From NCBI RefSeq assembly GCF_053078305.1, contig NZ_CP166879.1: DNA of 64,000 nucleotides. One strand, 5' to 3'. Below the pieces are notes generated by a model. That model made no database searches and had not been told where the DNA came from. It saw only the letters and a list, made by a program, of their open reading frames with translations. Positions 12,529-64,000 of this stretch are shown here, one piece after another; within the stretch, counting starts at the first letter, position 1; each line of letters opens with the position of its first letter. Both the position numbers and the translations under genes were made by a program.

Positions 12529-12644
12529 AACTGTTACTGAGTCAGCCGGAATAGTTCTGTTCCGGCTCCCTGACGGGAATATCACAACCCGTCAGGGATG
12601 ATGATGTTCTCTGTCTTTCCGATACTGAGAATGGAGATATCATT

Positions 12645-13112
12645 ATGACTGCAAATACTTCTTCTGCAAACGCTAAAACTGAGTACTTCAATCTGACACT
12701 GAAAGGCCTGGGGTATCTCAGCAACATTCGTCAGGTTAATCATCAGAACGGGACATTTCTCAGTTGTGTTGTGAATGCACTGAGTGGTCCGACGGACAGC
12801 CCGTCCTATGTGCGTTTTGATGTGACGGTTGCCGGTAAAGAGGCAACTTCCCTGATTGCCCGCTGCCAGAAAGCGGTGGATGAAGATCGCAAGGTGCTGA
12901 TTGGTTTTACCATGAGCAACCCCTCTACTGACATTTTTACCCTTAACCGGGGTGAACATGCCGGTGAGCAACGCGTCAGTCTGAAAGCCCGCCTGATCAA
13001 GGTGGAGTGGATCAAAATAGGCCAGGACATGGTTTATAAGACTGAAAAATCGGAATCCATACCGCCACAGAATGGCAATACCCCGCGGGAATACGCAGAA
13101 AATTCTTTCTGA
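12645..13112 (+). CDS. conserved hypothetical ICE protein
   Basis: 155-aa ORF with upstream AT-rich leader and hairpins; followed by a terminator. Confidence 0.55.
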   Translation: MTANTSSANAKTEYFNLTLKGLGYLSNIRQVNHQNGTFLSCVVNALSGPTDSPSYVRFDVTVAGKEATSLIARCQKAVDEDRKVLIGFTMSNPSTDIFTLNRGEHAGEQRVSLKARLIKVEWIKIGQDMVYKTEKSESIPPQNGNTPREYAENSF

Positions 13113-13130: not shown

Positions 13131-13176
13131 CCTCCCTGATGAAAACAGACCAACCATCAGGGAGGTCTGTTTTCTT
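13131..13176 (+). terminator. rho-independent terminator
   Basis: Stem CCTCCCTGATG...CATCAGGGAGG followed by T-rich tract. Confidence 0.55.
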
Positions 13177-13202
13177 ATCGTTTAACTTTAAGGAAACATG
13201 TT

Positions 13203-13406
13203 ATGAAACCGACAAGCGGAATTCTGGCCGCCAAAGCGGGCTATACCTTACCTCTGCAGATCCTCAGCAGTGCTCGTGGTTATTATATTGGTACTCAGTG
13301 CGACGAAGGGCCTGTGTCCCGGGAATCCGAAGAGTATTTCAGAAATTATGAGCAGGCAGTCCGGGCTCTGGAAAACGGCATCTGGACTCAGCGTGAATGT
13401 GTGTGA
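13203..13406 (+). CDS. small hypothetical protein
   Basis: 67-aa ORF directly upstream of ssb, with AAGGAAA RBS. Confidence 0.4.
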   Translation: MKPTSGILAAKAGYTLPLQILSSARGYYIGTQCDEGPVSRESEEYFRNYEQAVRALENGIWTQRECV

Positions 13407-33151: not shown

Positions 33152-33601
33152 ATGCTGAAAAAAACAATTCTGGCGTTATGTATTTCCGCACCATTTCTGG
33201 TTGCGGGCTGTGATGATGCGACAAAGGAGAATGTAAGTAAGAAGGCGGCAGATATAAAGGAAGCTGCGCAGACTCAACTCAGTGATGTGAAGGATGCCGC
33301 GGAGGAAGTGAAAATGCAGGCTGTCGGAAAGGTGGCAGAGGTTTCTGAAGCGGCTCAGTCCGGGCTCAGCGAGGTGAAGGATGCCGTGGAGGAAGTGAAA
33401 ACACAGGCAGCCGGAAAGGTGGCAGAGGTCTCTGAAGCGGCTCAGTCCGGGCTCAGCGAGGTGAAGGATGCCGTGGAGGAAGTAAAAACACAGGCAGCCA
33501 GAAAGGTGGCAGAGGTCTCTGAAGCGACTCAGTCCGGTCTCAGTGATGTGAAGGATACCGCTCCTGAAAAGGGGGCTGAAATATCCGTAACGGAGGAGTA
33601 A
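33152..33601 (+). CDS. lipoprotein with tandem internal repeats
   Basis: ORF track 33140..33601; ATG 33152 after GAGAG RBS; lipobox LVAGC. Three tandem copies of an about 20-aa (60-bp) unit AEVSEAAQSGLSEVKDAVEEVKTQAAGKV. Confidence 0.6.
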   Translation: MLKKTILALCISAPFLVAGCDDATKENVSKKAADIKEAAQTQLSDVKDAAEEVKMQAVGKVAEVSEAAQSGLSEVKDAVEEVKTQAAGKVAEVSEAAQSGLSEVKDAVEEVKTQAARKVAEVSEATQSGLSDVKDTAPEKGAEISVTEE

Positions 33602-43103: not shown

Positions 43104-43348
43104 TCAGGATCTGATGGAGGTTTTTTACGAGAATTAAACTTATCGATCAGATTAAAAACTATCGCTGCTAGTGTTATCGATGTACCTGCTATGCACCCAA
43201 ACACAATAACTCTTATCATTTGGTGGGTCGGGAAAAAAAAGAATCCTTTTGTTAGGTAAATAAATAAAGCTCCTCCCCCCATCAAAAGAAATCCACTGAT
43301 GATACAAAAGAGGCATGCATATATGAACAATACAATGTAAGCAATCAT
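43100..43348 (-). CDS. cdiI: CdiI immunity protein (small two-TM membrane protein)
   Basis: 82-aa ORF whose start overlaps the cdiA stop (ATGA); two hydrophobic helices. Confidence 0.65.
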   Translation of the reverse strand: MIAYIVLFIYACLFCIISGFLLMGGGALFIYLTKGFFFFPTHQMIRVIVFGCIAGTSITLAAIVFNLIDKFNSRKKPPSDPE

Positions 43349-46300
43349 TTCCCCTCCTCCTTCTTCGCGCTAGAAGAGAACTGATTATTACTACTTGCTT
43401 CTTTTATATATCCACCAAGAAATTCACTACCAAAAGATCCTGTCGCATCAAATATAAATCCCGGAAACTCTTTCCCAGTAACTGAGTTTACTATTCCGGG
43501 AGCATATACTCCAAATGCTCCACCCAATCCGGCCCCGGCAGCAGCCCCTCCAATAGAGCCTGTATTTGGACCATCGGTAAAGAATGCACCACCCATCGCA
43601 ATTCCGACGTTTTGTCCGACAGTTCTCCCCGGCGCAAGCATACCCGCAATGCCTGAACTGGCACTGCTTTTCCAGTCCCAGTTTTTGTTTTCATTACCTG
43701 GCTGGCTTAAATCAAACCACTGGTAACTTCCATTGGCTATCTCCGCGACGACTCCACCACTGACCATTTTACCGACCGAAGCAGCAGGCCCCAGATACCA
43801 TGCCCCGGCAATCATTACACCATCCTGATATCCATCCACGATCACTTTCGTGATATTGGTGCTGTCCGGCATATCACCTTTCGCTATCTTATCCAGTCCA
43901 GCCTGTGTTTGTTCCGGTGTCAGATTATTGTCCACCGCGTACTTGTTCCATGATGTAGCCGCAGCAGCATTGCTTTCAAAACCATCACCGAAGCTGAGCG
44001 CATTATTCTCAACCGTCGTCTTACCTGACTGTGCTCCGGCTACCGCTGAAGCTCCCGAATCTCCCACCAGACCACCGGCCAGGCCGGCAGCAACCGTTGC
44101 CAGTGTCGAGACCGTCTGCTTCTCTGTCCCGCTCAGTTCACTCACCGGCTTACCGTACATCTGTGTGGCTATCATTCCCACCACCTCGCCGGTGGCTGCG
44201 CCTGCGGCACCAGCCAGAGCATTCTTACCCTGTGCCAGAGACAGGGCTGCATTCACTACTGCATGAGCTGCCACACGTCCCGCACCGTCCGGGGTGGTCT
44301 GTTTGATAATTTCAGCAATATACGGTGCTGCACCACCTGCCAGGGCTGCACTCAGATTACCGCCGGCCAGCCCCTGTACTGCTGCCGTTGCGGCCTGTAT
44401 CGCCTGCTGGTATTTGCCTCCCGTTCCAAAACCTGAGGCCGCCATACCGTTATTGTAGGCCCGCTGCGCCACATCCTGTTCCGTGAACGGTTTTCCTGCT
44501 GCCTCAAGCTCCTCACGGGCCTGATTCAGTGCTGCCGGGTCCCGCTTCGCTTTCTCACCAGCTATCTGGCCTTCCGTTCTGGCAATATCTGCCACCTGGT
44601 TACCAATCTCACCAATGAGCTGCGCCTGCTGCAGTCGCTGCTGCTCTTTTTCCCTGTCAAAGATGGGGGACAGCGTCTGGTTTGCATGTGCTGCGTCACG
44701 GTTCAGGTCTGCCACATCCTGTTTCTGGCTCTGCGTATCCCGGATGGTGATATTCCCGGCAGACACAGCCGACTGAGTGGTGCTTTCTGCATGGCCTTCA
44801 TGATTTGCACCAACCAGCAGATTGTTGGCCATATTTCCCGCGAACTGGCCACCGATGCTGCCGCCAGTGCTGATACCCACGCTCTGGTGTTCAACTTTGT
44901 AATCAGCACGATTTTCGATATCACGGAAGCCCAGTGTACCGGTATCCAGCCGGTTTTTATCTGCCGTTGCCGTGGACGCAATCACCGCACCGTTCAGTTG
45001 CGTATGCTGTCCGGTGGTGACATCAAACCCGCCCCTGCCGGCAAAAATCCCCGTCTGCTCCTGCACACTGTCATAGTTACTGTGCATTTTATCCCGGCTG
45101 AGGCTCACACTCGCCGAACCGCTCATGGACCCGAAAGTGAAGCTGCCTCCGGCACTGGCATTCTGCTGCTTACTGTCATAACGGTCACTGTCCTGCTCAC
45201 TGGTCAGTGTCAGATGACGACCGGCATCCACTTTCACCGTTTCACCGCCGGCCTGCACGCCGGTAAGCGTGGTGTCCCGCCCGCTGATAATGGTCAGGCG
45301 GTTTCCCGCATCCACCGTGGTTTCTGTATGGGTGGTACCGTTGCCTTTTTCACTGCCCTTACCCTGGTTTGCGCTGGCTGAAACACTGATACCCCAGCCT
45401 CCGGCCCCCACACCGATACCGACACCCACACTGCCGCCACTGGATGAGTTCTTTCCTTCCAGCTTTGACGTGTTTTCTGCTGATACCAGATTCACGTCAC
45501 GGTTTGCCTGCAGCAGAACGTTGTTCCCTGCCTTTATCTGACTGCCCTGTATCGTCAGGTCACCATCCACGTCCTTCACGCCGGAGCCGGTGGCCTGAAT
45601 ACTGAGGTTATTACCTGCGGTCAGGGCGCTGTTCTTCGCCACCGTCTGCTCTGACTGCTGTTCTGATTTCGAAGACTGGCTGCCGTAAGAGAGGCTGATA
45701 CCCACGGCATTGTTATTCTCTTTCTGGTTGCCCTGTGCTTCTGCCAGTCGTCCGGCCTGCACGGCCTGAGCCCCCGAGAGCGCGGCCTTCACCCCCTGCA
45801 GGGCTTCAAGCCGGCTGTTTCCGGCAGATTTCGCCGCCTGCACGGTCTCCACCGTCGTGTTCAGGGCGCTGCCCACTGTGCCGGACAGGGCAAGCGTCAG
45901 ACCGGAGGTTTTCTGCTCCACCGAATGCGTCTGCACATGCCGGTCTGTGACGGCGCTAATGCTGACCTCCTTACCACTGAGTGCCATGTCCCTGCCGGCA
46001 ATCAGGTCAGCACTGTTGGCGCTCAGCCGGTTACCTGCCTGAAGGGAAACATCACCGTGAACACTCCCCACCGTGCTGCCTTTCTGTGTGCTGTCTGTTG
46101 CGGTGTCCGTGACTTTCAGACTCTGGCTGCCCACACTGAATCCCACACCTCCGGAGCTCATCAGCCCGGATTTTTTCTCCTGTTTCAGGTGTGTTTCACG
46201 GTTGCTTTCTGTCAGCGTGCCGATACTCAGGTCATTTCCGGCAGCCAGGGAGACACGGTTATCCCCGGCCACACTGCTGCCCGTGACGTTCAGATTATGT

Positions 46301-49300
46301 CCGGCACTGATACTGACCGTATCCCCGTTCAGTTCACTGCCCGTCATGGTCCGGCGGTCAGTGACATCATGCGTGGTTGTGGTGGTTTTCGATAACATCC
46401 CGCTGCTGCCGGTCACTTTATGGTATTCATCCAGCGAGCGGGTATTCTGTGCACCGGTCAGCGTCACGTCATGACCTGCCATCAGGGCCAGGCCTTTCTG
46501 AGCTGACAGCGATGCCGCCTGTGACGTCATATCCCGTCCGGCGGTCAGCGTGACATCACCGTTACCGGCAAGCGTGCTGCCCGTACTCTGTGTGACGCCC
46601 TGCGACAGACGATTATTTTTATCCCAGATAATATTGTCCTGCGCGGAAGTGGTCACTGTGGAAAGCGTCATATCCCTGCCCGCACTGAGTTGCGTCAGGC
46701 TGTCCTTACCCTGATTCACCACCGTTGCAGCCGTCAGATTCATATCCCGTCCGGCCTGCAGCACCAGTCTTCCCTGGTCGTTCTGCACATACACGCCGGC
46801 CACACTGTCGATACTGGTACGTTCAAAATGGTTCTGTCCGGCGTCGCGCTGTGCCGTACGGGTGGTGGTGGTCAGACTGATATCCCGTCCGGCCATCGCC
46901 AGCAGGCTGTCCGTGGCCTGCAGCAGCCCGCCGGTACTGTTAATATCCGTCCGGGCCGTCAGGCTGACATTTGCTCCCTGAATGGAGCCGGCCTGGTTGT
47001 GAATGTTTTCTGCACTGAGCTGCACGGTCTGCTTCCCGGCCAGTTTACCGCTGTTAAACAGGTCACCATCCAGCTTCATCACCATGTCCCTGCCGGCAAT
47101 CAGCGCACCGGCACTGTTCACATCACCGGGTTTTACACGGGCATACACCTGAGGTACCTGAACTGTCTGCGTGCTGCCGTCCGGCAGTGTCACCGTGGTG
47201 TTAACCAGCCAGACAATATCCCCGGTCAGTAACGCCATCTGCTCAGCCGTCAGCGCCACACCCGGTTTCAGGTTGTATTGCTTACCAAATGCAATACCCG
47301 CATCCATTAATGCCTTAAACTGCTCTTCATCACTGCCGTATCTGTCCAGGTACCGTTGCCCGGTCAGAGCGACAACCTGCTCTCGAATCAGACGCTGCTC
47401 GTAAAAACCGTCTCCCAGACGTTTGAGCATGTTATCCCCGTTCTGAGAAAACGCCTTCTGCATGTAATCACTGCCCAGCCACATCTTCTGGTTCGTAAAA
47501 CGCGGGTCCGTTTCAACCAGATATGGCACATTCACTGCCGGATTTGTTTTAAACAGACTGCTGTCCGGCAGACGGGTATCCGGCCCGGCAACATGGATAC
47601 TGCCCTGAGGTGTGCTGACTTCAAACTGCTGCCCCGGCAACAGAATGACCGGTTCACCGGCAGACACCACCGGGCGAAGCGGTATCCGGTCAGTAGCGGC
47701 TACTGCCGCATCCACATTTCCGGCCTGTCCTGTCTGTACATCCGTTCCCTGTGGCTTCAGAGGAGAAAGCGTGACCTGGCTGCCCTGAATCTGTCCGTGG
47801 CTGGTGAGCTCTCCCGGCTTCAGCGTAATGCTCTGAATTACAGTGGGCGGAGTGTACTGAGAGGTTTTCTCCCCCTGCTTATCCTTTCCTTTTTTCCTGA
47901 TACGGTAATAATACGTGGATGTTCCTGAGTCCGTAACATGCCGCTCGCCACTGACACTGACATTTTCCACGCTTCCTGACGGAATGGTCAGCAGGCCGCC
48001 TGCAACAACCTGACTCTTATCATTAAGCAGTTTGTCTGCCACAATCGTCATGCCGGCACCGGACAGAATTTTTCCCGGGTCGGAGTCTTTTACCCGGGTT
48101 TCTTCCACGGTACGGGTGTAATCATACTGCGTGAATTTATCTCTGGCGCCTTCCGGTGTATGCAGTTTTTTCAGTGAGTTACTGGAATCGTTATCCACAT
48201 AAACGCCCGGTTCACCGGCGCTCCAGCGTTTATCTGAGCCGCTGAGCTGATACTCAGTCACCTTTTCCGTGGAAACCACCACGCGCTCCGTGGTGAAATG
48301 GTCATTGACGTTATTGATTTGTCCGGCACTCAGTACCAGATATCCGGCGGCTTCAATAGTGGCACTGTGATTATTCAGTACACCGGCTTTCCCCGTGGCG
48401 GCACCATTCGCATCCAGCATGCCACCAGTATGCATATCACCTGCACTGTAAATCAGGCTGTGCGTCCGGTTATTCAGGGTCTGTACCCCTAAGTCCACAC
48501 GCTCACGCCCGGCCAGCGTCGCCGCCACGCCATTTTCTTCCAGATTATTAAATGTGGCAGCGCTGACACCAACAGCATCGCCGTAGATTCGCCCGGTACC
48601 GGAATTCGTCAGGGTGTTCGCCTGAAGATGCGTATATTTCCCGTCAATCAGCCCACGGTTCAGCAGTGTGTCCGTCACGTTAAGCCAGGTCTGCCCGGCA
48701 CTGATTTCACCTTTCTCTGTGTTTTCAAGGCGGATGCTGTTCAGGTCAAGCCGGCTGCCTGCCAGCAGGCTGCCGGTATTAGAGACATCGCCATTAACGG
48801 AAAGCGTAAGGTTTCCGTTCGCAATAGTCTGACCACTGTTGCTGAACGTTGTGTTACTTTTCAGCGTCATATCGCCCAGCGAAAGCAGTTTCCCGTCACC
48901 ACCGAGCTGACCGGCATCCACAGATACTGACTGCCCGGCCTTAACCACGCCGTCACGGTTCGAAAACGCCAGCTGACGGCCACTGACAGACAATGTCGCG
49001 CCGGAAGAGAGGACGCCGTCATTATTACTGAGCGTCCTGTCTGCCATAACCGTAAGCGCCCTGTCTGCCAGAATACTGCCCTCCTGGTTATCAAGGTCCT
49101 GCGTCGTGATGTGTATTGTCTGCGCTTCCAGCCCCTGACCGGTATTCTGCGTGTGGCGATTGATAAACTGCAGGGCGTTCAGCGTAATGGCGGAACCACT
49201 GCGAATCAGACCAGAGACGTTGTCCACAACGCCCCGTACACTGTTGAGCAACATGTCGCCCACAGACTGTATTTGTCCGTGGCTGTTCTGCAGACCTCCC

Positions 49301-52290
49301 GTATGCAGACGGAGTTCACCTTCACTGACCAGCCGGCCCCCCTCACGGTTATCCAGCGAGGTGGTGCTCAGGTCAGCTGTCGTTTTCGCCCCCACGGTCC
49401 CGCCCCGGTTATCCATTGCTCCGGTACTGACAGTCAGTTCCTGCAGGCTGTTCAGCGTACCGCGTCTGTTATCCAGCGTCTGGCCTGCGGTATTAATGCT
49501 GATACCCCTCCCCTGAATAAGACCGGACTGATTGTTCAGCGCCTGGCTGTTCCAGCCGAGCAGACCGTTTGCCACCATCTGACCGGATGTATTGTTAACC
49601 ACGCCTGCAGTCAGGGACAGAGCATCTCCCGACAAAAGCACACCGGCAGTGCTGTCCAGTGTGCCGGCATTCAGCGTCATCGGACCCTGACTGATAACCC
49701 CGCCCCGGTCACCACTATTACGGTTACTCAGTGTGTCAGCACGGAGATTCAGCGATGCACCGCTCTGTATCAGGCCGCCGGCATCGTTGATGATATCCGT
49801 CGAGGAAAGTGTCAGTGACTGCTGTGCCACCAGTCTGCCGCCCTGATTATCAAACCGTGTGACATCCAGCCTGCTGTTACCGTTGCTGACCACCGTCCCC
49901 TGCTGATTTTCCAGCACACTCAGGTGCGTATTCAGGTCCCCGCCGGCGGCAAGCGCCCCTTCCTGATTACTGACATCACCACCACTCAGCAACATATCCG
50001 TCCCGGCCTTCAGTGCGCCTTTCTGGTTCATCAGCGTACCTGACGATATCTGTAATGACGTCTGACTCCCCAGCACGCCCTGACGGTTATCGAGCGTTCC
50101 GGCGTTCAGGGTCATATCCTTCTGACCCGCCATAAATCCCTGCTGGTTATTCAGCATACCGGCCCGCACTGTCAGGGTACCGGCGCTGCTGATACCACCC
50201 CGTGTTTTCGTGTTCCGGTTACTGAGTACCCCGTCCTGTACATCCAGCGTCATGTCACTGCCGGACTGAATCAGACCATCATCAGAGACCAGTTCGCTGC
50301 CTGACACAGACAGCGTTTTCTGTGAAAGCAGTCTGCCGGACGTATTATCCAGCGCACCATCCAGCGTCACAGACAGCCCGTCAGCCACCACCGTACCCTG
50401 GTGGTTATTCAGATTCCCTGCCGAAATATCCAGCCTGCCGGCGGACTCCATTCGTCCCTCAGTATTGCTGACAGCCTGCTGTGTTTTTATCCTGCCCGTT
50501 CCGGCAGCAGCTGAAATCAGTCCGTTGTCGTTATTCAGCGCCTGTGTATTAATCAGGATGTCACGGCTGGCAAGCAGACGTCCCTGCTGGTTATCCACGG
50601 CGCCGGTTGTCCTCACCTGCAGACTGCCTGACTGCGCCGCCTGCACTTTCCCCCTGCGATTATCAAGGCTCAGTGCATCCAGACGCACCGCGCCATTTGC
50701 CGCAAACAGCCCTTCCCGGTTATCCACGCTTCCCGGCAGACTCAGCGAAAAATCCCCTGTTCCCGTCTGAGTCAGACTGCCTTTACGATTTGACAGGCTT
50801 TGTGCCGATATCTGCAGTGTGTCGGCATTTATCGTGCCACCATTATTGCTGAAGTGCCCGACAGTCCGGGCGGAAAGCGTACCGGCACTCAGTTGCGCAT
50901 TCTGTGTGGACAGATTTCCACTGGTTGCATCCAGCTCAGTATGTTGTCCCTGTATCCGGCTGTTGCTTAAATCCAGCCCCTGCCCCTTCAGTTGCATGTC
51001 CCCACCGGACAGAACCTGTCCGTGTGCCGCCAGTTCGCCGGTGGTACTGACAGTCAGGTTGCCCGCTGCCGCCAGACGTCCGTCATCTTTCACCCCGGCG
51101 GCCAGCAGACTCCGCTCACCGCCGGTCAGACGCGCTGTCTGAATCCGGGTGTTGCGACGTGATGCCACAGAGCCTGTATGGGTGAAGACACCATCACTCT
51201 GTATCTGCGTATCCTGCCCCGCATAAACAGAACCACTGTTATGCAGCTCCCGGGTTGTCGCCAGATGCACATCCGTTTTCGCACTGATACTGCCACTGTT
51301 TTCAATACGTCCGTCAGCCGTCAGGGTAACCGCCCCTGCCTGTGCACCAATATGACCGGCGTTACGAACACCCACCCCCGTTTCCGTACCGACAAGGCGA
51401 ATTTTTCCGGCATACATTCCGCCAAGACTGGCCACATCCAGTGCCATCTGAGGCTGTGAAGAGACATCACCGGTCTTTTTCTCAATCTGCCCGTGCGCGA
51501 TATCCACATTGTTACGTCCTGTGGTCACTTTCAGATCCTGCGCCCAGATACCCGCATTAATCTTCACAGACCGGGCAATGATATCGGTATAATCCGTGCG
51601 CGAGGCATCCATCCCTTTGCCCGTAACCTGAATCTCACCACGTTCAACACTGAATCCGGTCAGACTGCCGTTTTTCATCTGCGGCTGCCCCGTGGTCAGC
51701 GTGGCCCGGTTCGCATTAATAAAACCGCACCCGTCGCAACTGATGCCGGCCGGGTTCGCAATCACCACCTGCGCCTTTTTACCGGCAACCTCAACAAAAC
51801 CGTTCAACTGGCTGGGATTGCGACTGTTCACTTCATTAAGAATGATTCTGGCCTCTCCCTTAGCCAGCCACGGGTTCCCGGCCACCATGCCACCCAGTTG
51901 AGTCTGCACATTGTTATGGGCATTATTCAGAATGACGCCCTGGTTACCGACGTCGAACTGGCTGTATGCGTTATGTGAAACCCCGCCGGCAGAAGGCGTC
52001 TGAATATTCACCTGCGGAATGCCGCTGGCCGTCTGCGTAATCGTGGGCTGCTGATACCCTGGTGCGCCATGGTCTGCGACAATGCCTGCAGCACTGACAG
52101 AATGCACCATCCCCGAAGCCAGCCACAAAGAGAATGCAAGCGGCGTGACACGGCAGATACGTTGCCTGTGTGGATATCCTGTGCGGGAGGACAGTGATGT
52201 ACCGGCGCGACCGGAACGGGCAATATCTGCCACCACCATCAGCATTCCCCGGGCTTTGTTAAAAATAATGCGGTAACAATTTCTGTTCAT
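43345..52290 (-). CDS. cdiA: CdiA, contact-dependent growth inhibition exoprotein (TpsA/filamentous-haemagglutinin family)
   Basis: 2981-aa ORF; extended TPS signal peptide MNRNCYRIIFNKARGMLMVV, TPS domain with NPAGISCDGCGFIN, long haemagglutinin-type repeats, VENN motif at 44002-44013, then a 218-aa Gly-rich hydrophobic C-terminal domain (43348-44001). Confidence 0.9.
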   Translation of the reverse strand: MNRNCYRIIFNKARGMLMVVADIARSGRAGTSLSSRTGYPHRQRICRVTPLAFSLWLASGMVHSVSAAGIVADHGAPGYQQPTITQTASGIPQVNIQTPSAGGVSHNAYSQFDVGNQGVILNNAHNNVQTQLGGMVAGNPWLAKGEARIILNEVNSRNPSQLNGFVEVAGKKAQVVIANPAGISCDGCGFINANRATLTTGQPQMKNGSLTGFSVERGEIQVTGKGMDASRTDYTDIIARSVKINAGIWAQDLKVTTGRNNVDIAHGQIEKKTGDVSSQPQMALDVASLGGMYAGKIRLVGTETGVGVRNAGHIGAQAGAVTLTADGRIENSGSISAKTDVHLATTRELHNSGSVYAGQDTQIQSDGVFTHTGSVASRRNTRIQTARLTGGERSLLAAGVKDDGRLAAAGNLTVSTTGELAAHGQVLSGGDMQLKGQGLDLSNSRIQGQHTELDATSGNLSTQNAQLSAGTLSARTVGHFSNNGGTINADTLQISAQSLSNRKGSLTQTGTGDFSLSLPGSVDNREGLFAANGAVRLDALSLDNRRGKVQAAQSGSLQVRTTGAVDNQQGRLLASRDILINTQALNNDNGLISAAAGTGRIKTQQAVSNTEGRMESAGRLDISAGNLNNHQGTVVADGLSVTLDGALDNTSGRLLSQKTLSVSGSELVSDDGLIQSGSDMTLDVQDGVLSNRNTKTRGGISSAGTLTVRAGMLNNQQGFMAGQKDMTLNAGTLDNRQGVLGSQTSLQISSGTLMNQKGALKAGTDMLLSGGDVSNQEGALAAGGDLNTHLSVLENQQGTVVSNGNSRLDVTRFDNQGGRLVAQQSLTLSSTDIINDAGGLIQSGASLNLRADTLSNRNSGDRGGVISQGPMTLNAGTLDSTAGVLLSGDALSLTAGVVNNTSGQMVANGLLGWNSQALNNQSGLIQGRGISINTAGQTLDNRRGTLNSLQELTVSTGAMDNRGGTVGAKTTADLSTTSLDNREGGRLVSEGELRLHTGGLQNSHGQIQSVGDMLLNSVRGVVDNVSGLIRSGSAITLNALQFINRHTQNTGQGLEAQTIHITTQDLDNQEGSILADRALTVMADRTLSNNDGVLSSGATLSVSGRQLAFSNRDGVVKAGQSVSVDAGQLGGDGKLLSLGDMTLKSNTTFSNSGQTIANGNLTLSVNGDVSNTGSLLAGSRLDLNSIRLENTEKGEISAGQTWLNVTDTLLNRGLIDGKYTHLQANTLTNSGTGRIYGDAVGVSAATFNNLEENGVAATLAGRERVDLGVQTLNNRTHSLIYSAGDMHTGGMLDANGAATGKAGVLNNHSATIEAAGYLVLSAGQINNVNDHFTTERVVVSTEKVTEYQLSGSDKRWSAGEPGVYVDNDSSNSLKKLHTPEGARDKFTQYDYTRTVEETRVKDSDPGKILSGAGMTIVADKLLNDKSQVVAGGLLTIPSGSVENVSVSGERHVTDSGTSTYYYRIRKKGKDKQGEKTSQYTPPTVIQSITLKPGELTSHGQIQGSQVTLSPLKPQGTDVQTGQAGNVDAAVAATDRIPLRPVVSAGEPVILLPGQQFEVSTPQGSIHVAGPDTRLPDSSLFKTNPAVNVPYLVETDPRFTNQKMWLGSDYMQKAFSQNGDNMLKRLGDGFYEQRLIREQVVALTGQRYLDRYGSDEEQFKALMDAGIAFGKQYNLKPGVALTAEQMALLTGDIVWLVNTTVTLPDGSTQTVQVPQVYARVKPGDVNSAGALIAGRDMVMKLDGDLFNSGKLAGKQTVQLSAENIHNQAGSIQGANVSLTARTDINSTGGLLQATDSLLAMAGRDISLTTTTRTAQRDAGQNHFERTSIDSVAGVYVQNDQGRLVLQAGRDMNLTAATVVNQGKDSLTQLSAGRDMTLSTVTTSAQDNIIWDKNNRLSQGVTQSTGSTLAGNGDVTLTAGRDMTSQAASLSAQKGLALMAGHDVTLTGAQNTRSLDEYHKVTGSSGMLSKTTTTTHDVTDRRTMTGSELNGDTVSISAGHNLNVTGSSVAGDNRVSLAAGNDLSIGTLTESNRETHLKQEKKSGLMSSGGVGFSVGSQSLKVTDTATDSTQKGSTVGSVHGDVSLQAGNRLSANSADLIAGRDMALSGKEVSISAVTDRHVQTHSVEQKTSGLTLALSGTVGSALNTTVETVQAAKSAGNSRLEALQGVKAALSGAQAVQAGRLAEAQGNQKENNNAVGISLSYGSQSSKSEQQSEQTVAKNSALTAGNNLSIQATGSGVKDVDGDLTIQGSQIKAGNNVLLQANRDVNLVSAENTSKLEGKNSSSGGSVGVGIGVGAGGWGISVSASANQGKGSEKGNGTTHTETTVDAGNRLTIISGRDTTLTGVQAGGETVKVDAGRHLTLTSEQDSDRYDSKQQNASAGGSFTFGSMSGSASVSLSRDKMHSNYDSVQEQTGIFAGRGGFDVTTGQHTQLNGAVIASTATADKNRLDTGTLGFRDIENRADYKVEHQSVGISTGGSIGGQFAGNMANNLLVGANHEGHAESTTQSAVSAGNITIRDTQSQKQDVADLNRDAAHANQTLSPIFDREKEQQRLQQAQLIGEIGNQVADIARTEGQIAGEKAKRDPAALNQAREELEAAGKPFTEQDVAQRAYNNGMAASGFGTGGKYQQAIQAATAAVQGLAGGNLSAALAGGAAPYIAEIIKQTTPDGAGRVAAHAVVNAALSLAQGKNALAGAAGAATGEVVGMIATQMYGKPVSELSGTEKQTVSTLATVAAGLAGGLVGDSGASAVAGAQSGKTTVENNALSFGDGFESNAAAATSWNKYAVDNNLTPEQTQAGLDKIAKGDMPDSTNITKVIVDGYQDGVMIAGAWYLGPAASVGKMVSGGVVAEIANGSYQWFDLSQPGNENKNWDWKSSASSGIAGMLAPGRTVGQNVGIAMGGAFFTDGPNTGSIGGAAAGAGLGGAFGVYAPGIVNSVTGKEFPGFIFDATGSFGSEFLGGYIKEASSNNQFSSSAKKEEGK

Positions 52291-56444: not shown

Positions 56445-56603
56445 TTATCTCAGAATAAACATTGATGAATGGTAATAACAGGGACTGTTAATACTGTCCC
56501 TGTTATTTTTTCTGCAGACTGTTTTCTGTTCTTCCTGGTTATGTTCTGAGTGATGATGATTGACGCCTTTTATACGCTCTGATATGCTCAGAATGCATTA
56601 TCT

Positions 56604-56840
56604 GTCGCTTCGGCGACCACCAATGCTCCATAAGTGGTCTGAGAGGAGCGCCTTCGGGTGGCCACATCCCGCTTCGGTGGGCACCAATGTTCCGTTGATC
56701 TGAGAGGAACGCCTTCGGGTGATCAACACCCCCGTAACCTGAAAGGGGATGTGCAGCCAGGATGTTTCTGGTGGTGGTAAATCTGCCCACCTTTGAGAGC
56801 AGATATCGTCAGTCATGATGATGAAGGTTTCTTTTAACCG
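56604..56840 (+). repeat. structured repeat element, copy 2; left direct repeat flanking the recombinase module
   Basis: Near-identical to 58871-59105 and to the last two sub-units plus tail of 12233-12528; the similarity continues about 20 bp past the element. Confidence 0.55.
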
Positions 56841-57467
56841 CGCCCTTTATTACGGGCAATACACAGCAGTGGTTGTGTGATCCTTATCTATCCGGTGATG
56901 CCGGAATGTTTTTACTGCGTAATGGCGGTATTGACTTCTTTTATTCTTTTCATTTGTTTGCCAGCACTTCCTGCGACTGTGCGCGCTGTATAAGACCATT
57001 TGAAATTTGGTCGCTTACGCGTGTACCTGGCGTCTGAAGCTGCGCGGCGTCACTTTCGTCAGCGTGTCACGATGACAAAGTGACGCACGCGCGTCTGCTT
57101 AACGAACCCGCACGAACTGCCGTTTCACGTGATGTTTTTTAACATTTGAAGAAGTGACCCGGCGTGAGAGTGTTTTTTCAACCTCTTCTGCAAATTTACG
57201 GACGATTTTGTGAATAACGTCCATAAATGGTTTTTTGCAGAATTAATTGTTTTTTAAGGAGTTTTATGTAGTGAGATGCCGAATCGGCGATACCACTTAT
57301 TAGAGGTGGTGTCGGGGGCGACCTGGAGACAGGTACAGCAAATGCTGCAGTCGGTGTGCAACACCGATTTGTTACCCCTCAATACCTAAACAATCTGCGC
57401 TACCCTGGCGCACAGGCAGTCACTACCCGAAGGATCGCAACGTTTAACCGTGTCGTCAGGGAGAAAT

Positions 57468-57518
57468 GCAGATGAGTTTTTCTGTTGTGTTCACGGCACA
57501 ACAGAAAAACTCATCTGC
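57468..57518. other. perfect 22-bp inverted repeat with 7-bp spacer; candidate recombinase target site
   Basis: GCAGATGAGTTTTTCTGTTGTG-TTCACGG-CACAACAGAAAAACTCATCTGC, about 50 bp upstream of the recombinase start; no T tract after it, so not a typical terminator. Confidence 0.6.
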
Positions 57519-58826: not shown

Positions 58827-58870
58827 CTTGACATTCATCTTTTGTGATTTAAAAATATACAGGCTTATAT

Positions 58871-59105
58871 GTCGCTTCGGCGACCACCAATGCTCCATAA
58901 GTGGTCTGAGAGGAGCGCCTTCGGGTGACCACATCCCGCTTCGGTGGGCACCAATGTTCCGTTGATCTGAGAGGAACGCCTTCGGGTGATCAACACCCCC
59001 GTAACCTGAAAGGGGATGTGCAGCCAGGATGTTTCTGGTGGTGGTAAATCTGCCCACCTTTGAGAGCAGATATCGTCAGTCATGACGATGAAGGTTTCTT
59101 TATAA
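58871..59105 (+). repeat. structured repeat element, copy 3; right direct repeat flanking the recombinase module
   Basis: Near-identical to 56604-56840. Confidence 0.55.
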
Positions 59106-59227
59106 CTGCGCCCTTTATTAACGGGCTTTTTCTGACAGCAACACCATGCTGTACTGGTGGTGTTTTAACCCTGACGGGAGTTTTTGTCCGTCGGGGCGAA
59201 GGCTCCCGTTTTTTTACAGGAGTCTTT

Positions 59228-59620
59228 ATGTCAACGTTTATTTTGTGCCCTGAACCGGGCATCTCTTCTTTTTTCCGGCGAATGACGGCTCAGTTGCGGG
59301 TGTTTTTTTCCCGCAATAACCTGTCATATTACAGTCGCTGGTACACTAATCCGGCCGGCAATCTGAGCGTGCGGGTCTGTATGTTCCGTCGTGGCGGTGT
59401 CTGGACACCCTGCCTGTATTACCGGCAGGGAATGTATCGCAACGAGTACACAGGATGGTATCAGCCGTTACCGCGTGAGGTCATTTATCTGAACCGGTTT
59501 ACCGGACGGATATCCCGTCGCAGGACATGGCATGCTGCCTGCCGTATGGCGGAGCAACTGACCACCCTGCGTTACCGGTTTGGTCTGCAGGGTGATGGAA
59601 TCGTCGCACAGCCCTGCTGA
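59228..59620 (+). CDS. hypothetical protein
   Basis: ATG 59228 after AGGAG RBS; preceded by a CCCTGACGG...CCGTC(A/G)GGG hairpin leader. The ORF-track entry 59060..59620 begins inside the repeat. Confidence 0.4.
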   Translation: MSTFILCPEPGISSFFRRMTAQLRVFFSRNNLSYYSRWYTNPAGNLSVRVCMFRRGGVWTPCLYYRQGMYRNEYTGWYQPLPREVIYLNRFTGRISRRRTWHAACRMAEQLTTLRYRFGLQGDGIVAQPC

Positions 59621-59702
59621 TTTATCATTTATTACCCTGTCGGGAACACGCTTCCCGCAGGGCAGGTGTGTTCCCGTTATTTTTTGTATCTGAGGTGAAC
59701 AC

Positions 59703-60182
59703 ATGCATAGTCTGTTAATACTCCTTTACGTTGTTGTATGGCGTGCCTGCACCATTCTTCGGGTAATCGCACCAGTGTCGGCTGTCCGTGCGTGGTGTGA
59801 GTATCAACTGGAAGGTATGACGATACTTCGTGATGCGTACAGCTCGCTGGCTAAGGCGGCTGGAATGCAGAATGATGCATTTGAATATACTGAAAGTATT
59901 GCACGTCATCTGGGCTACAAAAGCGGTGGTGACCAACTGAAATCAGGACTTTTCCGGCCGTTTCTGTGGCATATACGTGTGAAAGGCCACAGGCTGGGGG
60001 CTGTCATGGAGATGGAGGCATGGAAGACATGGAAGAATGGCTGTAACGATGTCTGCAATCCATGGGAGGATGTCTGTAATCCATGGGAGCGTGGATGGAA
60101 CGATGGCTGGACGGAATGTCTGAATCAACGTATAGCCGGGCTCCTGAAGCAGGCCTGTATTGAATTTTCCGACGCAGACTGA
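59703..60182 (+). CDS. hypothetical protein
   Basis: 159-aa ORF with GAGGTG RBS. Confidence 0.45.
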   Translation: MHSLLILLYVVVWRACTILRVIAPVSAVRAWCEYQLEGMTILRDAYSSLAKAAGMQNDAFEYTESIARHLGYKSGGDQLKSGLFRPFLWHIRVKGHRLGAVMEMEAWKTWKNGCNDVCNPWEDVCNPWERGWNDGWTECLNQRIAGLLKQACIEFSDAD

Positions 60183-60377
60183 CGGGCAGGATGCCAGTCA
60201 GTCACAGGAAGGATGTCAAATCGTGAGCGATGCAACTGCCATTTTGCAATGATGGCTGTTTTGCTCCCGTAACGGTTTTTCTTTTACTTACTGCACCGTG
60301 TTTTTGCGCCGGTGTTTTCCCTGACGGGAGTTTTGTTCCGTCAGGGACAGGACTTCCTTTAAGAGACGGAGGTCATC

Positions 60378-60755
60378 ATGTATTCACCTTTAATTGCTCA
60401 TTATTCAGCGCTTCAGACGCAGTCTGCTCTGCTGGCTCATATCAGTCAGATGGAAGGCGAGCTGATGCGGTTACGTGCCTGGCAACGGCTGGGTATTACC
60501 CCGGAGCCGGATGATGAGACGGAGCCTTCACTGGTATACGTGTATCTGTGGGATACCGGCGAGGCGCTGGGCTGGCTGTTGTATGACCTGGAGCAGGAGG
60601 AGATTTCCGCACCGGGAATTCAGGCCCGTCAGGCACTCGACAGTCTGATGGCTCTGGGGCGTGAAATTAATCATGAAATCTGGGCTGACAGTATCAGTAC
60701 CGGAAAGATGGTGGCCGGAGCGGATGAATATTTTGCCCGGCACGACATGATGTAA
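60378..60755 (+). CDS. hypothetical protein
   Basis: 125-aa acidic ORF with GGAGG RBS; same hairpin leader as 59228. Confidence 0.45.
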   Translation: MYSPLIAHYSALQTQSALLAHISQMEGELMRLRAWQRLGITPEPDDETEPSLVYVYLWDTGEALGWLLYDLEQEEISAPGIQARQALDSLMALGREINHEIWADSISTGKMVAGADEYFARHDMM

Positions 60756-60836
60756 TTCATGACCTGACTCTGACGGGGGAGTTCTCCGTCCGGGAGACAT
60801 TCCCCGTTGTTTAGTTTTAACCATGAGGAATGTTCC

Positions 60837-61466
60837 ATGTCTGAGTTATCTTCACGTCCGGTCCGTGAGCCGGTGGTATATACCCTTGAGCAGGTTTCCA
60901 CAATACCGGAAAAGCAGTGGCATGCTTTTGTTCTGGCTGTCACTGAAACCTTCTGGCAGTTGCCGGAGGCGTTACGGCCGCAGAATGCGTATTTCGGCTC
61001 CCTGACCCGGGCGTCAGAGTTGTTTCCGGTAACGGACACGCTGGCGTTTTACTGCCGGTCTGCCGACGGGCTGTGGTCGGTGAATGTCACTATTGAGCGG
61101 GAGCACAGCCGGAATATCCTGGCTCTTAATGAGCTGAATTTCGGACGTCAGCCGGGAGATTTCTTTGCCCGTACAGTCTTTGTGCTGTTGCACAATCTGT
61201 GTCCGGACTGTTTTCGTATTCATTCCACTGTCGGTGGTGCCAGCTGGTCGCTGCCGCTGAAATGGATAAAACGGTACCTGGGGCATGAGAATTTTTCTGC
61301 TCCGGAGTCTGTATTAACCACCCCGGTAAGGGGAGATGCGTTTGACAGCTTACTGCTGCAGTTTTTGTCCGGTCAGGGGCGACAGTTATCCCCGGATGAC
61401 TGGGCAGCACTGGAAGAGGCCGAATATCAGCTTTACTGGCTGCGGGCTCTTGCCGGTGGGCGGTAA
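60837..61466 (+). CDS. hypothetical protein
   Basis: ORF track 60807..61466; ATG 60837 after GAGGA RBS. Confidence 0.45.
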   Translation: MSELSSRPVREPVVYTLEQVSTIPEKQWHAFVLAVTETFWQLPEALRPQNAYFGSLTRASELFPVTDTLAFYCRSADGLWSVNVTIEREHSRNILALNELNFGRQPGDFFARTVFVLLHNLCPDCFRIHSTVGGASWSLPLKWIKRYLGHENFSAPESVLTTPVRGDAFDSLLLQFLSGQGRQLSPDDWAALEEAEYQLYWLRALAGGR

Positions 61467-61581
61467 CAGAACGCCGTAGTTTCTTTATCCGGAATAACGT
61501 CATCACGTATTCCGTCATTATATCACCCGGCAGGGACATATCCCTGTGGGGAGAGTCCCGGCTTTATTCAGGAGAATTGTT

Positions 61582-61965
61582 ATGGGACTCGATATTTACT
61601 TTCTGGCTCGTGATAACCATCACAGTGGTGCCGTTGTGGGAACACAGGAACATCAGGAGGTGGGGGCTTTCCGTAAGGTGAAACCGCTTCTGACATGGTT
61701 TCGTGAACATACCGGTGCTTCAGATGAGCAGCATGCTTTCCCTGTAACCCGCAGTTCACTGGCTGCATTATTGCGCGACCTCAGTATGCTGACACCGGGG
61801 AACTGCCACAGGCTGTTTCCTTATGTCACAGGCTCGTGTTTACGGGGGGAAGATTATGCCGGTGATTACTGGTATGACGTGGATGACGTAAAAGCGTGGG
61901 TCAGCAATACGCTGAAGACGTTTGATTTTGAGCGTCGTTCACTGGTGATGCTGGCGTTGTGGTAA
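61582..61965 (+). CDS. hypothetical protein
   Basis: ORF track 61546..61965; ATG 61582 after AGGAG RBS. Confidence 0.45.
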   Translation: MGLDIYFLARDNHHSGAVVGTQEHQEVGAFRKVKPLLTWFREHTGASDEQHAFPVTRSSLAALLRDLSMLTPGNCHRLFPYVTGSCLRGEDYAGDYWYDVDDVKAWVSNTLKTFDFERRSLVMLALW

Positions 61966-62057
61966 TTCTGGCCAGTCTGATTTTCGTTATTAATTTAACT
62001 GTACGGTGCACTCTCACCGTACAGGGAGCGTGCATCTTTTTCAGGGGGCATGCTCTT

Positions 62058-63035
62058 ATGAAAACGAAAAAACATACTTCACGTACCGCGATTAAAACTC
62101 CGGAACGTGACCTGTATCAGCTTGTGACCGACAGGGTTGTTACGGCCATTGAAAATGGTGTGCCACCCTGGAAACGTCCCTGGCGCTCTGCGCGTAATGG
62201 CGTGGGGCTTCCGGAGATGATGCCGGCAAATGCCCTGACCGGGAAGCCTTATACAGGGGTGAACGTCCTGTTGCTGTGGCTGGCCGCGGATGAAGCCGGG
62301 TATGTCAGCAATGACTGGCTGACGTACCGTCAGGCGCAACAACTGGGTGGCCACGTCCGTAAAGGGGAGGTGGCCACGCTGGCGGTGATTTACAAAGACT
62401 GGAAAAAACAGGCTGTGGATGAACACGGTAACCGGCTGACGGACAGTGAGGGGGAGCCTCTCATGGAAATCGTACCGGTACTGAAATCGAATCCTCTGTT
62501 TAATGTGGGGCAGTGTGACGGTTTACCTGAACATCTGATGGTGAAGGCGGAAGGCAGCGCGGATGCACTGCCGGCAGATACCTTCAGTGAGCGGGTGCTG
62601 CAGGTACTGAATGGCAGCGGCGTCAGCGTCTCGTCACTTCCACAGGACAGGGCATTCTACCGGCCTGATCTTGACCGTATCGTGATGCCACTGTCGTCGC
62701 AGTTTGACCAGGTGGCTGATTACTGGACCACCCTGCTGCATGAGCTGGTACACAGTACCGGTCATGAAAAGCGCCTGCGGCGGGTGGGGATAAGTACCTT
62801 TACCGGTCGCAAAAGCCCGGAATATGCGTTTGAAGAGCTGATTGCCGAGATGGGCAGTGCTTTTCTGTGTGCACATCTCGGGATTGCCGGTGACGTACAG
62901 CACGAAAGTTATATTGACGGATGGCTTAAGGTTCTGAAGTCTGACAAAAAAGCGCTGTTTCGCGCCTGCCGGCAGGCACGTGAAGCATCAGAGTATTTAC
63001 TGACGCGGCGAACTTCGCAGGAGTGCGCAGCATAA
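62058..63035 (+). CDS. ardC: ArdC-like antirestriction protein (N-terminal ssDNA-binding domain plus zincin-like metallopeptidase domain)
   Basis: ORF track 61959..63035; ATG 62058 after AGGGGG RBS. HELVHSTGH (HExxH) motif in the C-terminal domain; N-terminal ...ENGVPPWKRPW... pattern typical of ArdC. Confidence 0.7.
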   Translation: MKTKKHTSRTAIKTPERDLYQLVTDRVVTAIENGVPPWKRPWRSARNGVGLPEMMPANALTGKPYTGVNVLLLWLAADEAGYVSNDWLTYRQAQQLGGHVRKGEVATLAVIYKDWKKQAVDEHGNRLTDSEGEPLMEIVPVLKSNPLFNVGQCDGLPEHLMVKAEGSADALPADTFSERVLQVLNGSGVSVSSLPQDRAFYRPDLDRIVMPLSSQFDQVADYWTTLLHELVHSTGHEKRLRRVGISTFTGRKSPEYAFEELIAEMGSAFLCAHLGIAGDVQHESYIDGWLKVLKSDKKALFRACRQAREASEYLLTRRTSQECAA

Positions 63036-63148
63036 TTTTTACTACCGGTGGCGGTTATAACCTGACCGCCATTTATCCCGTGAGGGCATTGTACCTCACG
63101 GGACAATGCCCTCTTTTTACATCTGTATAAAAAAGAGGAGCGTAAACA

Positions 63149-64000
63149 ATGTCTGAATGGTGCAAAAACCGTTTTGAAATTACCGGTAAATCAGTCTGTC
63201 TTGATGTACTTACACAGTGGATTGAAGGGCGTGAGACCCCGCGCTACCGTCATGCCATACAGCAGAGTATACAGCTGTTTCTGGCCGGTTGTGCAGGGCT
63301 GGTAAAACCCACACGGACGACGCAGTATCCGCCATATCCGGCGCTGGTTCGTCAAGGAACGGGGTTGTCATCTCCGGCTAACCAGGCGTTTGAGCAGTGG
63401 CTGGGGTTGCTGGTAAAAAATGCCGTTCTGGATGGTGAAACGATAAAGACCATTGAGCGTCTTTATCACCAGTCATGTATCGGCGCTGTTCGCTGGGGTA
63501 ATCTGCCGGATAATGCCAGGGAGATCATCACCACGCTGATGAGCCGTCAGTATTCTGACTGGTTTGGTCTGGCCGGGCTGAGTGAACACATTGATGCAGA
63601 AGCCTGCTGGAGCTGGTTGTCGGATTACCCGGAACAGGCGCAGCCCTGTGACATGCTGATGGTCATACCCTCCCGTCTGGCTACAGAGCTGAATGGTTCA
63701 GGTGGACTGCTGCAGGGTATTTCCACAACGACCAGCCTTTACAGCCGGATATACGGTGTGGAGTGGCCGTCAGGAAATAATGTTCGCCATGCGCGTGATG
63801 AGATGAGCAGTCTGGTGCTGCTGATCGACACGCCCTGGTATCCGCCTTCAGGCGAACTGGTTGGTGAGATCTCGAAGGTGTTTGACTGCGAGGTCCGACA
63901 CTGGTACAGCGAGCCGGTACACGGTATACAGGGTTACAACTGTTACGATGGCGGAGAGCATACGGACAGTGATCTGCAGGCCGAATGGCCGGGCAGGGAA
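63149..64000 (+). CDS. hypothetical protein, 3' end truncated by window edge
   Basis: ATG 63149 after AAGAGGAG RBS; frame open through position 64000 (284 codons, no stop), so absent from the ORF track. Confidence 0.5.
   Translation, partial: MSEWCKNRFEITGKSVCLDVLTQWIEGRETPRYRHAIQQSIQLFLAGCAGLVKPTRTTQYPPYPALVRQGTGLSSPANQAFEQWLGLLVKNAVLDGETIKTIERLYHQSCIGAVRWGNLPDNAREIITTLMSRQYSDWFGLAGLSEHIDAEACWSWLSDYPEQAQPCDMLMVIPSRLATELNGSGGLLQGISTTTSLYSRIYGVEWPSGNNVRHARDEMSSLVLLIDTPWYPPSGELVGEISKVFDCEVRHWYSEPVHGIQGYNCYDGGEHTDSDLQAEWPGRE

Follow-up and report, generated by a model that had tools for sequence, protein, structure and literature searches.

The 64,000-nt stretch of DNA considered here (the window; NCBI RefSeq assembly GCF_053078305.1, contig NZ_CP166879.1) represents a chromosomal integrative conjugative element (ICE) of Escherichia coli (Shiga toxin-producing (STEC) strains). 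A preliminary description had pointed out conserved hairpins upstream of several of its small genes. These repeated hairpins are the first helix (HP-B) of a structured mRNA leader of 65-85 nt that ends exactly at the start codon. The helices of this leader are conserved, covary, are anchored to start codons and recur as a multi-copy family. Judged from modeled folds, the leader is probably a cis-acting two-state RNA switch that stands before individual accessory genes and sets the access to their ribosome sites. It would thereby set the translation of each gene, and in AT-richer hosts also the read-through, with the mature mRNA being off by default.

The repeated hairpins and the architecture of the leader

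The hairpins reported at first are the following:

59169-59196: 5' arm CCCTGACGG, loop gagtttttgt, 3' arm CCGTCgGGG (one G.T pair); then AGGAG and ATG 59228
60319-60346: 5' arm CCCTGACGG, loop gagttttgtt, 3' arm CCGTCAGGG; then GGAGG and ATG 60378
12568-12597: 5' arm CCCTGACGGG, loop aatatcacaa, 3' arm CCCGTCAGGG; then GGAGA and ATG 12645

A Shine-Dalgarno (SD) sequence and the ATG are found 30-50 nt 3' of each. The pattern CCCTGNCGG-N4-30-CCGNCRGGG occurs at these three loci only in the window and has no match in 100 dinucleotide-preserving shuffles, so the hairpins described before 59228 and 60378 and the related one before 12645 are indeed present. Their starts had been placed a few bases off (59178 instead of 59169, and 12571 instead of 12568). 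Further exact CCCTGACGG 9-mers occur at 17326, 31533, 35813, 50078 and 51318, where the full inverted-repeat pattern is not matched. The CCCTGACGG arm itself, presented earlier as the conserved feature, does not hold as such, as other copies use quite different sequences. Six more leaders with the same architecture and another sequence, which had been missed, lie upstream of 13203, 59703, 60837, 61582, 62058 and 63149; the window thus contains at least nine leaders of differing sequence.

The leader can be subdivided into four segments. The first (seg1) comprises the top of the 5' arm of HP-B plus the loop, and is purine-rich; the second (seg2) is the 3' arm of HP-B. Right after HP-B follows a pyrimidine-rich anti-SD (seg3), usually trailed by a U-rich tract, and the last segment (seg4) runs from the true SD to the AUG. 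As seg3 is complementary to both seg1 and seg4, seg1 resembles the SD and spacer of the gene's own ribosome site. Two folds can be drawn from these segments. In fold A, HP-B (seg1:seg2) is accompanied by a second hairpin, HP-C (seg3:seg4), which buries the ribosome site. In fold B, seg1 pairs with seg3 in a long hairpin (LH) that carries seg2 at its apex. Here the ribosome site is free, and several copies of LH are terminator-like.

Folding of the intergenic regions (the leaders at 59-63 kb and the one at 12.5 kb) yielded HP-B, HP-C and a variable upstream hairpin, HP-A, in all cases, with z-scores of -2.4 to -7.1. HP-A is often trailed by a few U. A pseudoknot, in which the HP-B loop would pair with a downstream strand while the stem stays closed, was rejected by our own steric reasoning. 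Its connecting loops would be 0-1 nt, and the HP-B and LH pairings are therefore treated as alternatives. The ATG at 59147, a possible start of a leader peptide, lacks an SD and lies in another frame.

Conservation and covariation of HP-B and HP-C

By protein alignment, 72 loci of STY4534, the gene that starts at 12645, were collected from other species (genera including Serratia, Xenorhabdus, Photorhabdus, Pantoea, Erwinia, Edwardsiella, Morganella, Pectobacterium, Enterobacter and Thioalkalivibrio), and all of them have the leader. The design is kept in 64 distinct leaders, including those of the Thioalkalivibrio homologues at 40% protein identity. Both arms change together among these orthologues (CCCCGACGGGA/TCCCGTCAGGG, CCCAATGGGA/TCCCATTGGG, CCCTGAAGGGA/TCCCTTAAGGG and CCGGGGA/TCCCCGG), and the 5' CCC, which is paired only in HP-B, is strongly conserved. 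The covariation across homologues that had been proposed as a check is thus borne out: STY4534 homologues of more than 60 species keep the hairpin in front of them, with compensatory changes.

A covariance model (R1) of HP-B and HP-C up to the ATG was built from 39 STY4534 leaders only. In its alignment of 76 matches, changes on both sides were found in 20 of the 22 modeled HP-B and HP-C pairs, among them all 12 pairs of HP-C. Such changes fill 108 cells (shuffled mean: 42); none of 500 shuffles reached the observed values, and slid controls were lower. An earlier RNAalifold run on a MAFFT alignment gave 6 pairs only, owing to register shifts between clades, and was superseded by the covariance-model alignment.

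Two further features were observed at the end of the STY4534 leaders. In most orthologues (loci L003-L066) a 10-nt palindrome, CTCCATGGAG, overlaps the SD just before the start codon. Directly 5' of GGAG, most orthologues also carry ACCTCC, the sequence of the 16S rRNA 3' end, which would add a third anti-SD-like element, located in the loop of HP-C.

The leaders of the window

The helices of the nine leaders are given below, with the range of E-values where R1 matches them.

12544-12567 (+): HP-A of the leader of the STY4534/DUF3577 gene (ATG 12645), from the RNA fold of 12530-12655; orthologues have a hairpin of varying sequence here
12568-12597 (+): HP-B of the 12645 leader, CCCTGACGGG-N10-CCCGTCAGGG, kept with compensatory changes in the 64 distinct orthologous leaders
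12598-12646 (+): HP-C of the 12645 leader, seg3 (~12598-12617) with seg4 GGAGATATCATTATG, SD and AUG buried (folding and seg3 x seg4 covariation)
13131-13205 (+): leader of a 67-aa gene (13203); HP-B 13131-13165, LH 13137-13180, HP-C 13168-13198 (R1, E 6e-4 to 1e-3; folds)
59140-59164 (+): HP-A of the leader of a 130-aa gene (ATG 59228); the terminator scan gives 59142-59159 followed by GTGTTTTAAC, terminator-like
59169-59196 (+): HP-B of the 59228 leader, within the R1 match 59166-59230 (E 8e-4 to 1.5e-3)
59173-59217 (+): LH of the 59228 leader, 17 pairs at 59173-59210, then TTTTTTT, SD free (terminator scan)
59198-59227 (+): HP-C of the 59228 leader, GAAGGCTCC with GGAGTCTTT, SD AGGAG buried (folds)
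59632-59705 (+): leader of a 159-aa gene (ATG 59703; R1, E 4e-6 to 7e-6; folds); HP-B 59635-59662 (CCCTGTCGGGAA/TTCCCGCAGGG), LH 59641-59676 then TTATTTTTT, HP-C 59666-59704
60293-60315 (+): HP-A of the leader of a 125-aa gene (ATG 60378; fold)
60318-60347 (+): HP-B of the 60378 leader, within the R1 match 60316-60380 (E 1e-3 to 2e-3)
60351-60374 (+): HP-C of the 60378 leader, GGACTTCC with GGAGGTC, SD buried (folds)
60765-60839 (+): leader of a 209-aa gene (ATG 60837; R1, E 2.5e-6 to 4.6e-6; folds); HP-B ~60768-60794, LH 60771-60809 then TGTTTAGTTTT, anti-SD ACATTCC with GGAATGT
61523-61590 (+): leader of a 127-aa gene (ATG 61582); HP-B 61526-61551, HP-C 61553-61590, which buries the AUG and first codons (folds); R1 match 61523-61584 (E 0.03 to 0.06)
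61996-62060 (+): leader of the ArdC gene (ATG 62058); HP-B 61999-62024, HP-C 62025-62056 (same architecture by folding)
63073-63151 (+): leader of the DUF1281 gene (ATG 63149); HP-B 63076-63103, LH 63082-63113 then TTTTT, HP-C 63106-63143 (folds)

Six window leaders other than the STY4534 leader were found by R1, and each of these matches ends at the start codon. In the 12645 leader, the mean probability of being unpaired over positions -12 to +3 is 0.10. The HP-B of the 60378 leader carries an A>G change in the E. coli variant locus L079, with a G.U pair kept. Orthologues of the DUF1281 leader in L079 and in a second variant locus, L077, gave weak R1 matches (E 0.16-0.18).

The predicted alternative fold

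The full leader prefers fold A, by a margin of 3 kcal/mol for 59228, 4 for 59703 and 12 for 12645. When the ribosome-binding site is masked, LH becomes the minimum free energy (MFE) structure in five of the nine window leaders and in about half of the orthologues that gave a result. In the masked orthologue folds where LH wins, its advantage over HP-B alone is typically 4-9 kcal/mol. In the case of 59228, LH is the masked MFE structure (-28.3 kcal/mol vs -31.4 for fold A). When only the first 46 nt are folded, LH is the MFE structure in about 30 of 48 leaders.

The double complementarity of seg3 was evaluated by duplex energies, with segments taken from the model alignment and cognate pairs compared with non-cognate ones across 59 distinct leaders. 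The seg1 x seg3 duplex reaches -15.4 kcal/mol for cognate and -9.0 for non-cognate segments, and the seg3 x seg4 duplex -13.5 and -8.5, respectively (permutation p at most 5e-5 for both). Permutation within one element only, which controls for host composition, gave the same p for both duplexes, with the ArdC leader included. Among the window leaders, the cognate and non-cognate values are -15.8 vs -7.4 for seg1 x seg3 and -12.0 vs -6.7 for seg3 x seg4. Two exclusive conserved folds on one shared strand, as in an attenuator-type leader, are thus indicated by the covariation of HP-B and HP-C, the seg1:seg3 advantage and the masked MFE structures. A covarying upstream strand complementary to the SD and AUG, as in an SD-sequestering leader, is present as well. 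The covariation and the pairing of seg3 with both seg1 and the SD-AUG region support the idea, already put forward in the preliminary description, that the shared 5' leaders may mean a common post-transcriptional control.

During synthesis, HP-B would form first. Once seg3 has been made, LH could replace it and, in most copies, would be the most stable fold until seg4 is made. From then on, fold A would win as the ground state of the full leader, and translation would be off. Where LH lies directly before a U-run (the leaders of 59228, 59703 and 63149), it would also set the read-through. Kinetics, a protein, an RNA or processing are candidates for shifting the balance between the folds.

A specific form of this switch would be one in which an RNA-binding protein binds HP-B and stabilizes it against LH, as with the RAT hairpin of BglG/LicT-type antiterminators. 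HP-B overlaps the 5' half of LH and is the less stable of the two in roughly half of the compared leaders, and the features CCC...GGGA / TCCC...GGG recur. Such a protein is quite improbable, as the conserved letters are all explained by SD and anti-SD mimicry, no candidate protein was identified, and a stabilized HP-B would leave seg3 free to bury the ribosome site. The protein binding suggested earlier is also made less likely, as far as a sequence-specific site is meant, by the varied arm sequences of the copies within one element.

Several points weigh against the two-state switch itself. Fold A beats fold B by 8-15 kcal/mol in several leaders, and spontaneous switching is therefore doubtful in those. 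Column-wise covariation of LH is not significant (0.168 vs 0.159; reached by 60 of 500 shuffles). The model alignment treats the loop columns as insertions, and positional homology is lost there; the support for seg1:seg3 is that of the per-sequence duplex test. The pair counts of HP-B and HP-C come from an alignment fitted to R1, which favors structure, and R1 does not reach the ArdC leader (none at E<1) or the DUF1281 leader of the window. An LH with a strong U-run would terminate rather than activate. Finally, the U-run is absent in GC-rich hosts; termination is therefore not a universal function, and translation control would be the common denominator.

Possible termination and intercistronic punctuation

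On the coding strand, the tract 3' of seg3 contains 47% U (28% overall), and a U-run of at least four follows seg3 in 29 of 61 leaders. HP-B is not followed by a U-run. LH has the form of an intrinsic terminator, a GC-rich hairpin with a U-run directly behind it, at 59173-59217, 59641-59685 and 63082-63118. The hairpins could accordingly be read as intercistronic punctuation, that is, as terminators or 3'-end stabilizers that serve the preceding gene or the STAXI RNA found before some of them, with incidental pairing of the ribosome site and no switch. The U-runs agree with this, as do the few U that often follow HP-A and the terminator score of LH at 59173-59210 (with weaker ones elsewhere). 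A gonococcal island operon, ssbB-yegA, has also been reported without the DUF3577 gene (PMC3334931). This explanation is nevertheless rather unlikely: HP-B has no U-run behind it, the 5' CCC used by HP-B alone is strongly conserved, seg3 covaries with seg4, the leader always ends at the start codon, and the design persists without the U-run in GC-rich hosts.

Probable action as RNA rather than DNA

The predicted fold of the sense strand is 2.6-2.75 kcal/mol more stable than that of the antisense strand, G.U pairs are more frequent than A.C mismatches (100 vs 57), the U-rich tract lies 3' of seg3 on the coding strand, and the SD and start codon form part of the structure. These observations favor an RNA of the sense strand over an operator in duplex DNA or a single-stranded structure of the opposite strand.

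Iterated operators are found before establishment genes on plasmids such as R388. The inverted repeat CCCTGACGG-N10-CCGTCAGGG, with the same 9-bp half-sites in three copies, could in the same way be a double-stranded operator for a dimeric regulator of the element. This explanation is very improbable. The six further leaders have different arms at the same position, at least six arm sequences being present among the nine leaders of one element, and the arms of orthologues change together (GAC/GTC to AAT/ATT). The excess of G.T over A.C and the ties of the design to SD, AUG and one strand also speak against an operator.

It has also to be considered that the hairpins act in single-stranded DNA (ssDNA) during conjugative transfer, as a priming signal, single-strand promoter or recombination site of the nearby Integrase_1 protein. 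The presence of ssb, ArdC, methylase and DUF1281 genes corresponds to the content of plasmid leading regions (PMC11541004), the genes all lie on one strand, and a role in ssDNA was raised by Weinberg et al. (PMC2864571) for the neighboring STAXI motif. Neither the origin of transfer nor the strand that is transferred could be placed. A function in ssDNA is very improbable, given that the sense strand folds better and that pairing with the SD and AUG would be meaningless for DNA. A single-strand promoter of the Frpo/ssi kind was likewise rejected: the stems measure 9-18 bp, and no promoter-like pair of -35/-10 hexamers lies over the leaders on either strand.

Distribution of the leader

Across 87 kb from a related E. 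coli element, R1 matches only these leaders and the methylase leader, and none of the type IV secretion system or cargo genes. About ten copies were found in pKLC102 and four in ICEHin1056 (before STY4534, DUF3560, radC and one unknown gene). Copies are also present in Vibrio pVS127, a Burkholderia glumae plasmid, Ralstonia and Comamonas. Nearly all matches outside the window end at independently annotated start codons.

The leader at 60285-60385 occurs in 65 of 5426 E. coli genomes, at a median of one place per genome and always in this island context. Extragenic palindromes of the type of repetitive extragenic palindromes or bacterial interspersed mosaic elements (REP/BIME) were rejected on this ground. 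No family of Rfam 15 (4227 models) covers the leader at the gathering threshold; up to E 10, the only overlapping matches, those of rli42 and sR7, are at chance level (E at least 1.4). The literature search found no paper describing it. Going by these matches, the leader is conserved and uncatalogued, and the family of integrative conjugative elements that carries it is widespread.

The element and its accessory array

The window is an element of the SPI-7/PAPI-1/ICEclc type, with TIGR037xx, traD, topoisomerase III, STY4528 and STY4534 as marker genes. SPI-7, PAPI-1/pKLC102 and ICEHin1056 are members of this family, which spreads virulence and antibiotic resistance. The ATG at 12645 starts a STY4534/DUF3577 protein, followed in the same cluster by the 67-aa gene (13203) and then ssb. 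The genes at 59228-61965 encode five small proteins without a family, after which ArdC and DUF1281 follow; an N6-methylase lies past the window end. STY4534, ArdC, DUF1281, the N6-methylase and many small genes of no assigned function are counted as the accessory array of the element. Pfam, NCBIfam and PHROGs gave no function for the small proteins of the array. Near the array, a recombinase is encoded at 57568 (Pfam Integrase_1, PF12835, plus PF12834). An integron attC site would be an imperfect inverted repeat with R/L boxes at a cassette 3' end, beside an IntI integrase; the hairpins here are tied to the ribosome site of the gene that follows.

In variant arrays of other E. coli strains (L075, L077 and L079), the same genes are found in another order and with other partners (ArdC or PF03230 antirestriction, LPD29, CBASS SMODS cargo), each gene keeping its own leader. 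The layout of the variant arrays is cassette-like, downstream of the Integrase_1 recombinase. A perfect 22-bp hairpin at 57470-57515 lies between an EFASI RNA and the Integrase_1 gene, without a U-run after it; it is kept in L077 with both arms changed.

Other repeats of the window are two tandem arrays (8219-9166 and 33242-33560), one with a 36-nt unit in no fewer than 19 copies and one with an 87-nt unit in three. On the minus strand, an open reading frame of 2368 aa (43345-50451) inside the element overlaps part of a 55-nt repeat family (45203, 46733, 46871).

STAXI, radC and other RNAs

The known RNAs and promoter-like sites around the leaders are:

12360-12525, 56603-56768 and 58870-59035 (+): STAXI RNA (RF01728; Rfam covariance model)
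57268-57425: EFASI RNA (Rfam)
58828-58856 (+): sigma-70-like promoter match TTGACA-17-AAAAAT (consensus match only); the start would fall at the STAXI 5' end
56560-56588: second promoter-like match, equivalently placed in front of the 56603 STAXI copy

The three STAXI matches score 93.6, 76.2 and 90.9 bits. They lie within a 237-nt repeat family (D2; 12291-12527, 56598-56834 and 58865-59101) with 97-100% identity. As promoter-like sites lie just before two of the STAXI copies, transcription of the 59-64 kb array probably yields a single RNA with STAXI at its 5' end.

STAXI and radC RNAs share with the leader the elements, the strand and the neighbors (ssb, antirestriction, integrase), and lie directly 5' of some leaders. 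Unlike them, the leader falls outside both models, and most leaders have neither RNA in front. Of the three hairpins, two follow a STAXI copy at a distance of 40-130 nt and fall outside its model, and the 60319 copy has no STAXI nearby. In Thioalkalivibrio and ICEHin1056, leaders are present with no STAXI or radC match. An assignment of the leader to STAXI (threshold 40.5 bits; a pseudoknot unit repeated two or three times) or to radC (RF01754, threshold 40 bits) was therefore rejected, as no match of either overlaps the leaders, even at E up to 10; up to the same E, radC has no match anywhere in the window. STAXI or EFASI as a sponge or activator was dismissed as well, as their duplexes with seg3 or seg2 are no better than shuffled ones (z -0.9 to +0.3). 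An antisense promoter at 12670-12642 was discarded: it would use the complement of ATTATG as its -10, which orthologues do not keep.

In pKLC102 and Ralstonia, a radC RNA ends 7-30 nt before some leaders (pKLC102, locus L080: 18669-18816, 19746-19896 and 22274-22411; Ralstonia, locus L084: 1776-1915 and 5771-5915). Its position relative to the leader and the DUF3577 gene is that of STAXI in enterobacteria, and by this shared position the two RNAs may be functional counterparts. Together, radC and STAXI were reported to make up 80% of the RNAs in ICEs of the mating-pair-formation type G (MPF_G) (Cury et al., PMC5587801).

Other RNAs are found in the same surroundings. STAXI has a C4 antisense RNA (RF01695) a few kb away in Xenorhabdus (L012, 5730-5814) and in an enterobacterial metagenome-assembled genome (L029, 3932-4019), in agreement with the report that STAXI is sometimes near c4 RNAs (Weinberg et al. 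2010, PMC2864571). In the Burkholderia glumae plasmid (L082, 5471-5639), psRNA2 (RF02349, 146 bits) is located between an IS481 transposase gene and the DUF3577 leader. It sits where STAXI or radC lie elsewhere and may belong to the insertion sequence.

Comparison with known systems

By analogy, the logic of the leader is that of an attenuator or riboswitch. Exclusive helices on a shared strand, a terminator-like hairpin with U-run in several copies, an anti-SD helix that buries the ribosome site, and a synthesis order that decides on the first helix would all be common to them. Unlike attenuators and riboswitch platforms, the leader has no recognized sensor (no aptamer, leader peptide or known binding protein). 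An SD look-alike is locked in a hairpin, and the competing LH spans seg2 instead of joining adjacent segments. It is also a multi-copy module, with about ten copies per mobile element before unrelated genes.

The hok mRNA (tac/antitac/fbi) is an example of a metastable type I toxin mRNA leader. In such leaders, of which H. pylori aapA1 (10.1101/615682) and timP (PMC13000454) are further cases, the SD is sequestered by an upstream anti-SD, successive alternative hairpins form while the RNA is being made, and the anti-SD strand is contested by a sequence further upstream, as would be the case here. This likeness is one of architecture only: the leader differs by having no antisense partner, no toxin gene and no evident 3' processing element.

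In IS10 and IS50, upstream sequence in the longer transcripts from outside promoters folds back onto the transposase ribosome site and silences read-through. The leader resembles this by pairing upstream sequence with the ribosome site of a mobile-element gene, but the seg1 decoy and HP-B have no counterpart there. A promoter scan found no promoter-like site inside the leaders downstream of seg3, and a short leader-free transcript, as in IS10 and IS50, is therefore not evident.

Among the early genes of phage T7, which include the anti-restriction gene 0.3, RNase III signals are hairpins between cistrons and influence how the following gene is translated. In the array considered here, stable hairpins likewise stand between early or anti-restriction genes. 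The leader helices (9-18 bp), in contrast, are short for RNase III, and alternative folds are not a feature of T7.

Implications for the element family

A far-reaching and unlikely extension would see the leaders as locks, and the STAXI and radC RNAs as the matching keys, in an RNA circuit that spans the element. At the head of each array, a promoter would be followed by a STAXI or radC RNA, and this RNA would modify the polymerase (as the put RNA of HK022) or recruit a factor. Only transcripts initiated at the proper promoter would then get past the LH terminators and release the anti-SD locks. If this holds, a burst of anti-restriction and establishment proteins would follow the entry into a new cell, whereas read-through transcripts of the resident state would be both terminated and untranslatable. 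As a weaker corollary, the leader would mark undiscovered anti-defense genes of MPF_G elements genome-wide.

For the two-state switch itself, the consequence would be a common and testable RNA-level control for the anti-restriction and establishment genes of the SPI-7, PAPI-1/pKLC102 and ICEHin1056 family. This control would be physically linked to STAXI and radC, RNAs whose function has been open since 2010. R1 may further serve as a signpost for the small genes that travel with the leaders, which are candidates for new anti-defense functions.

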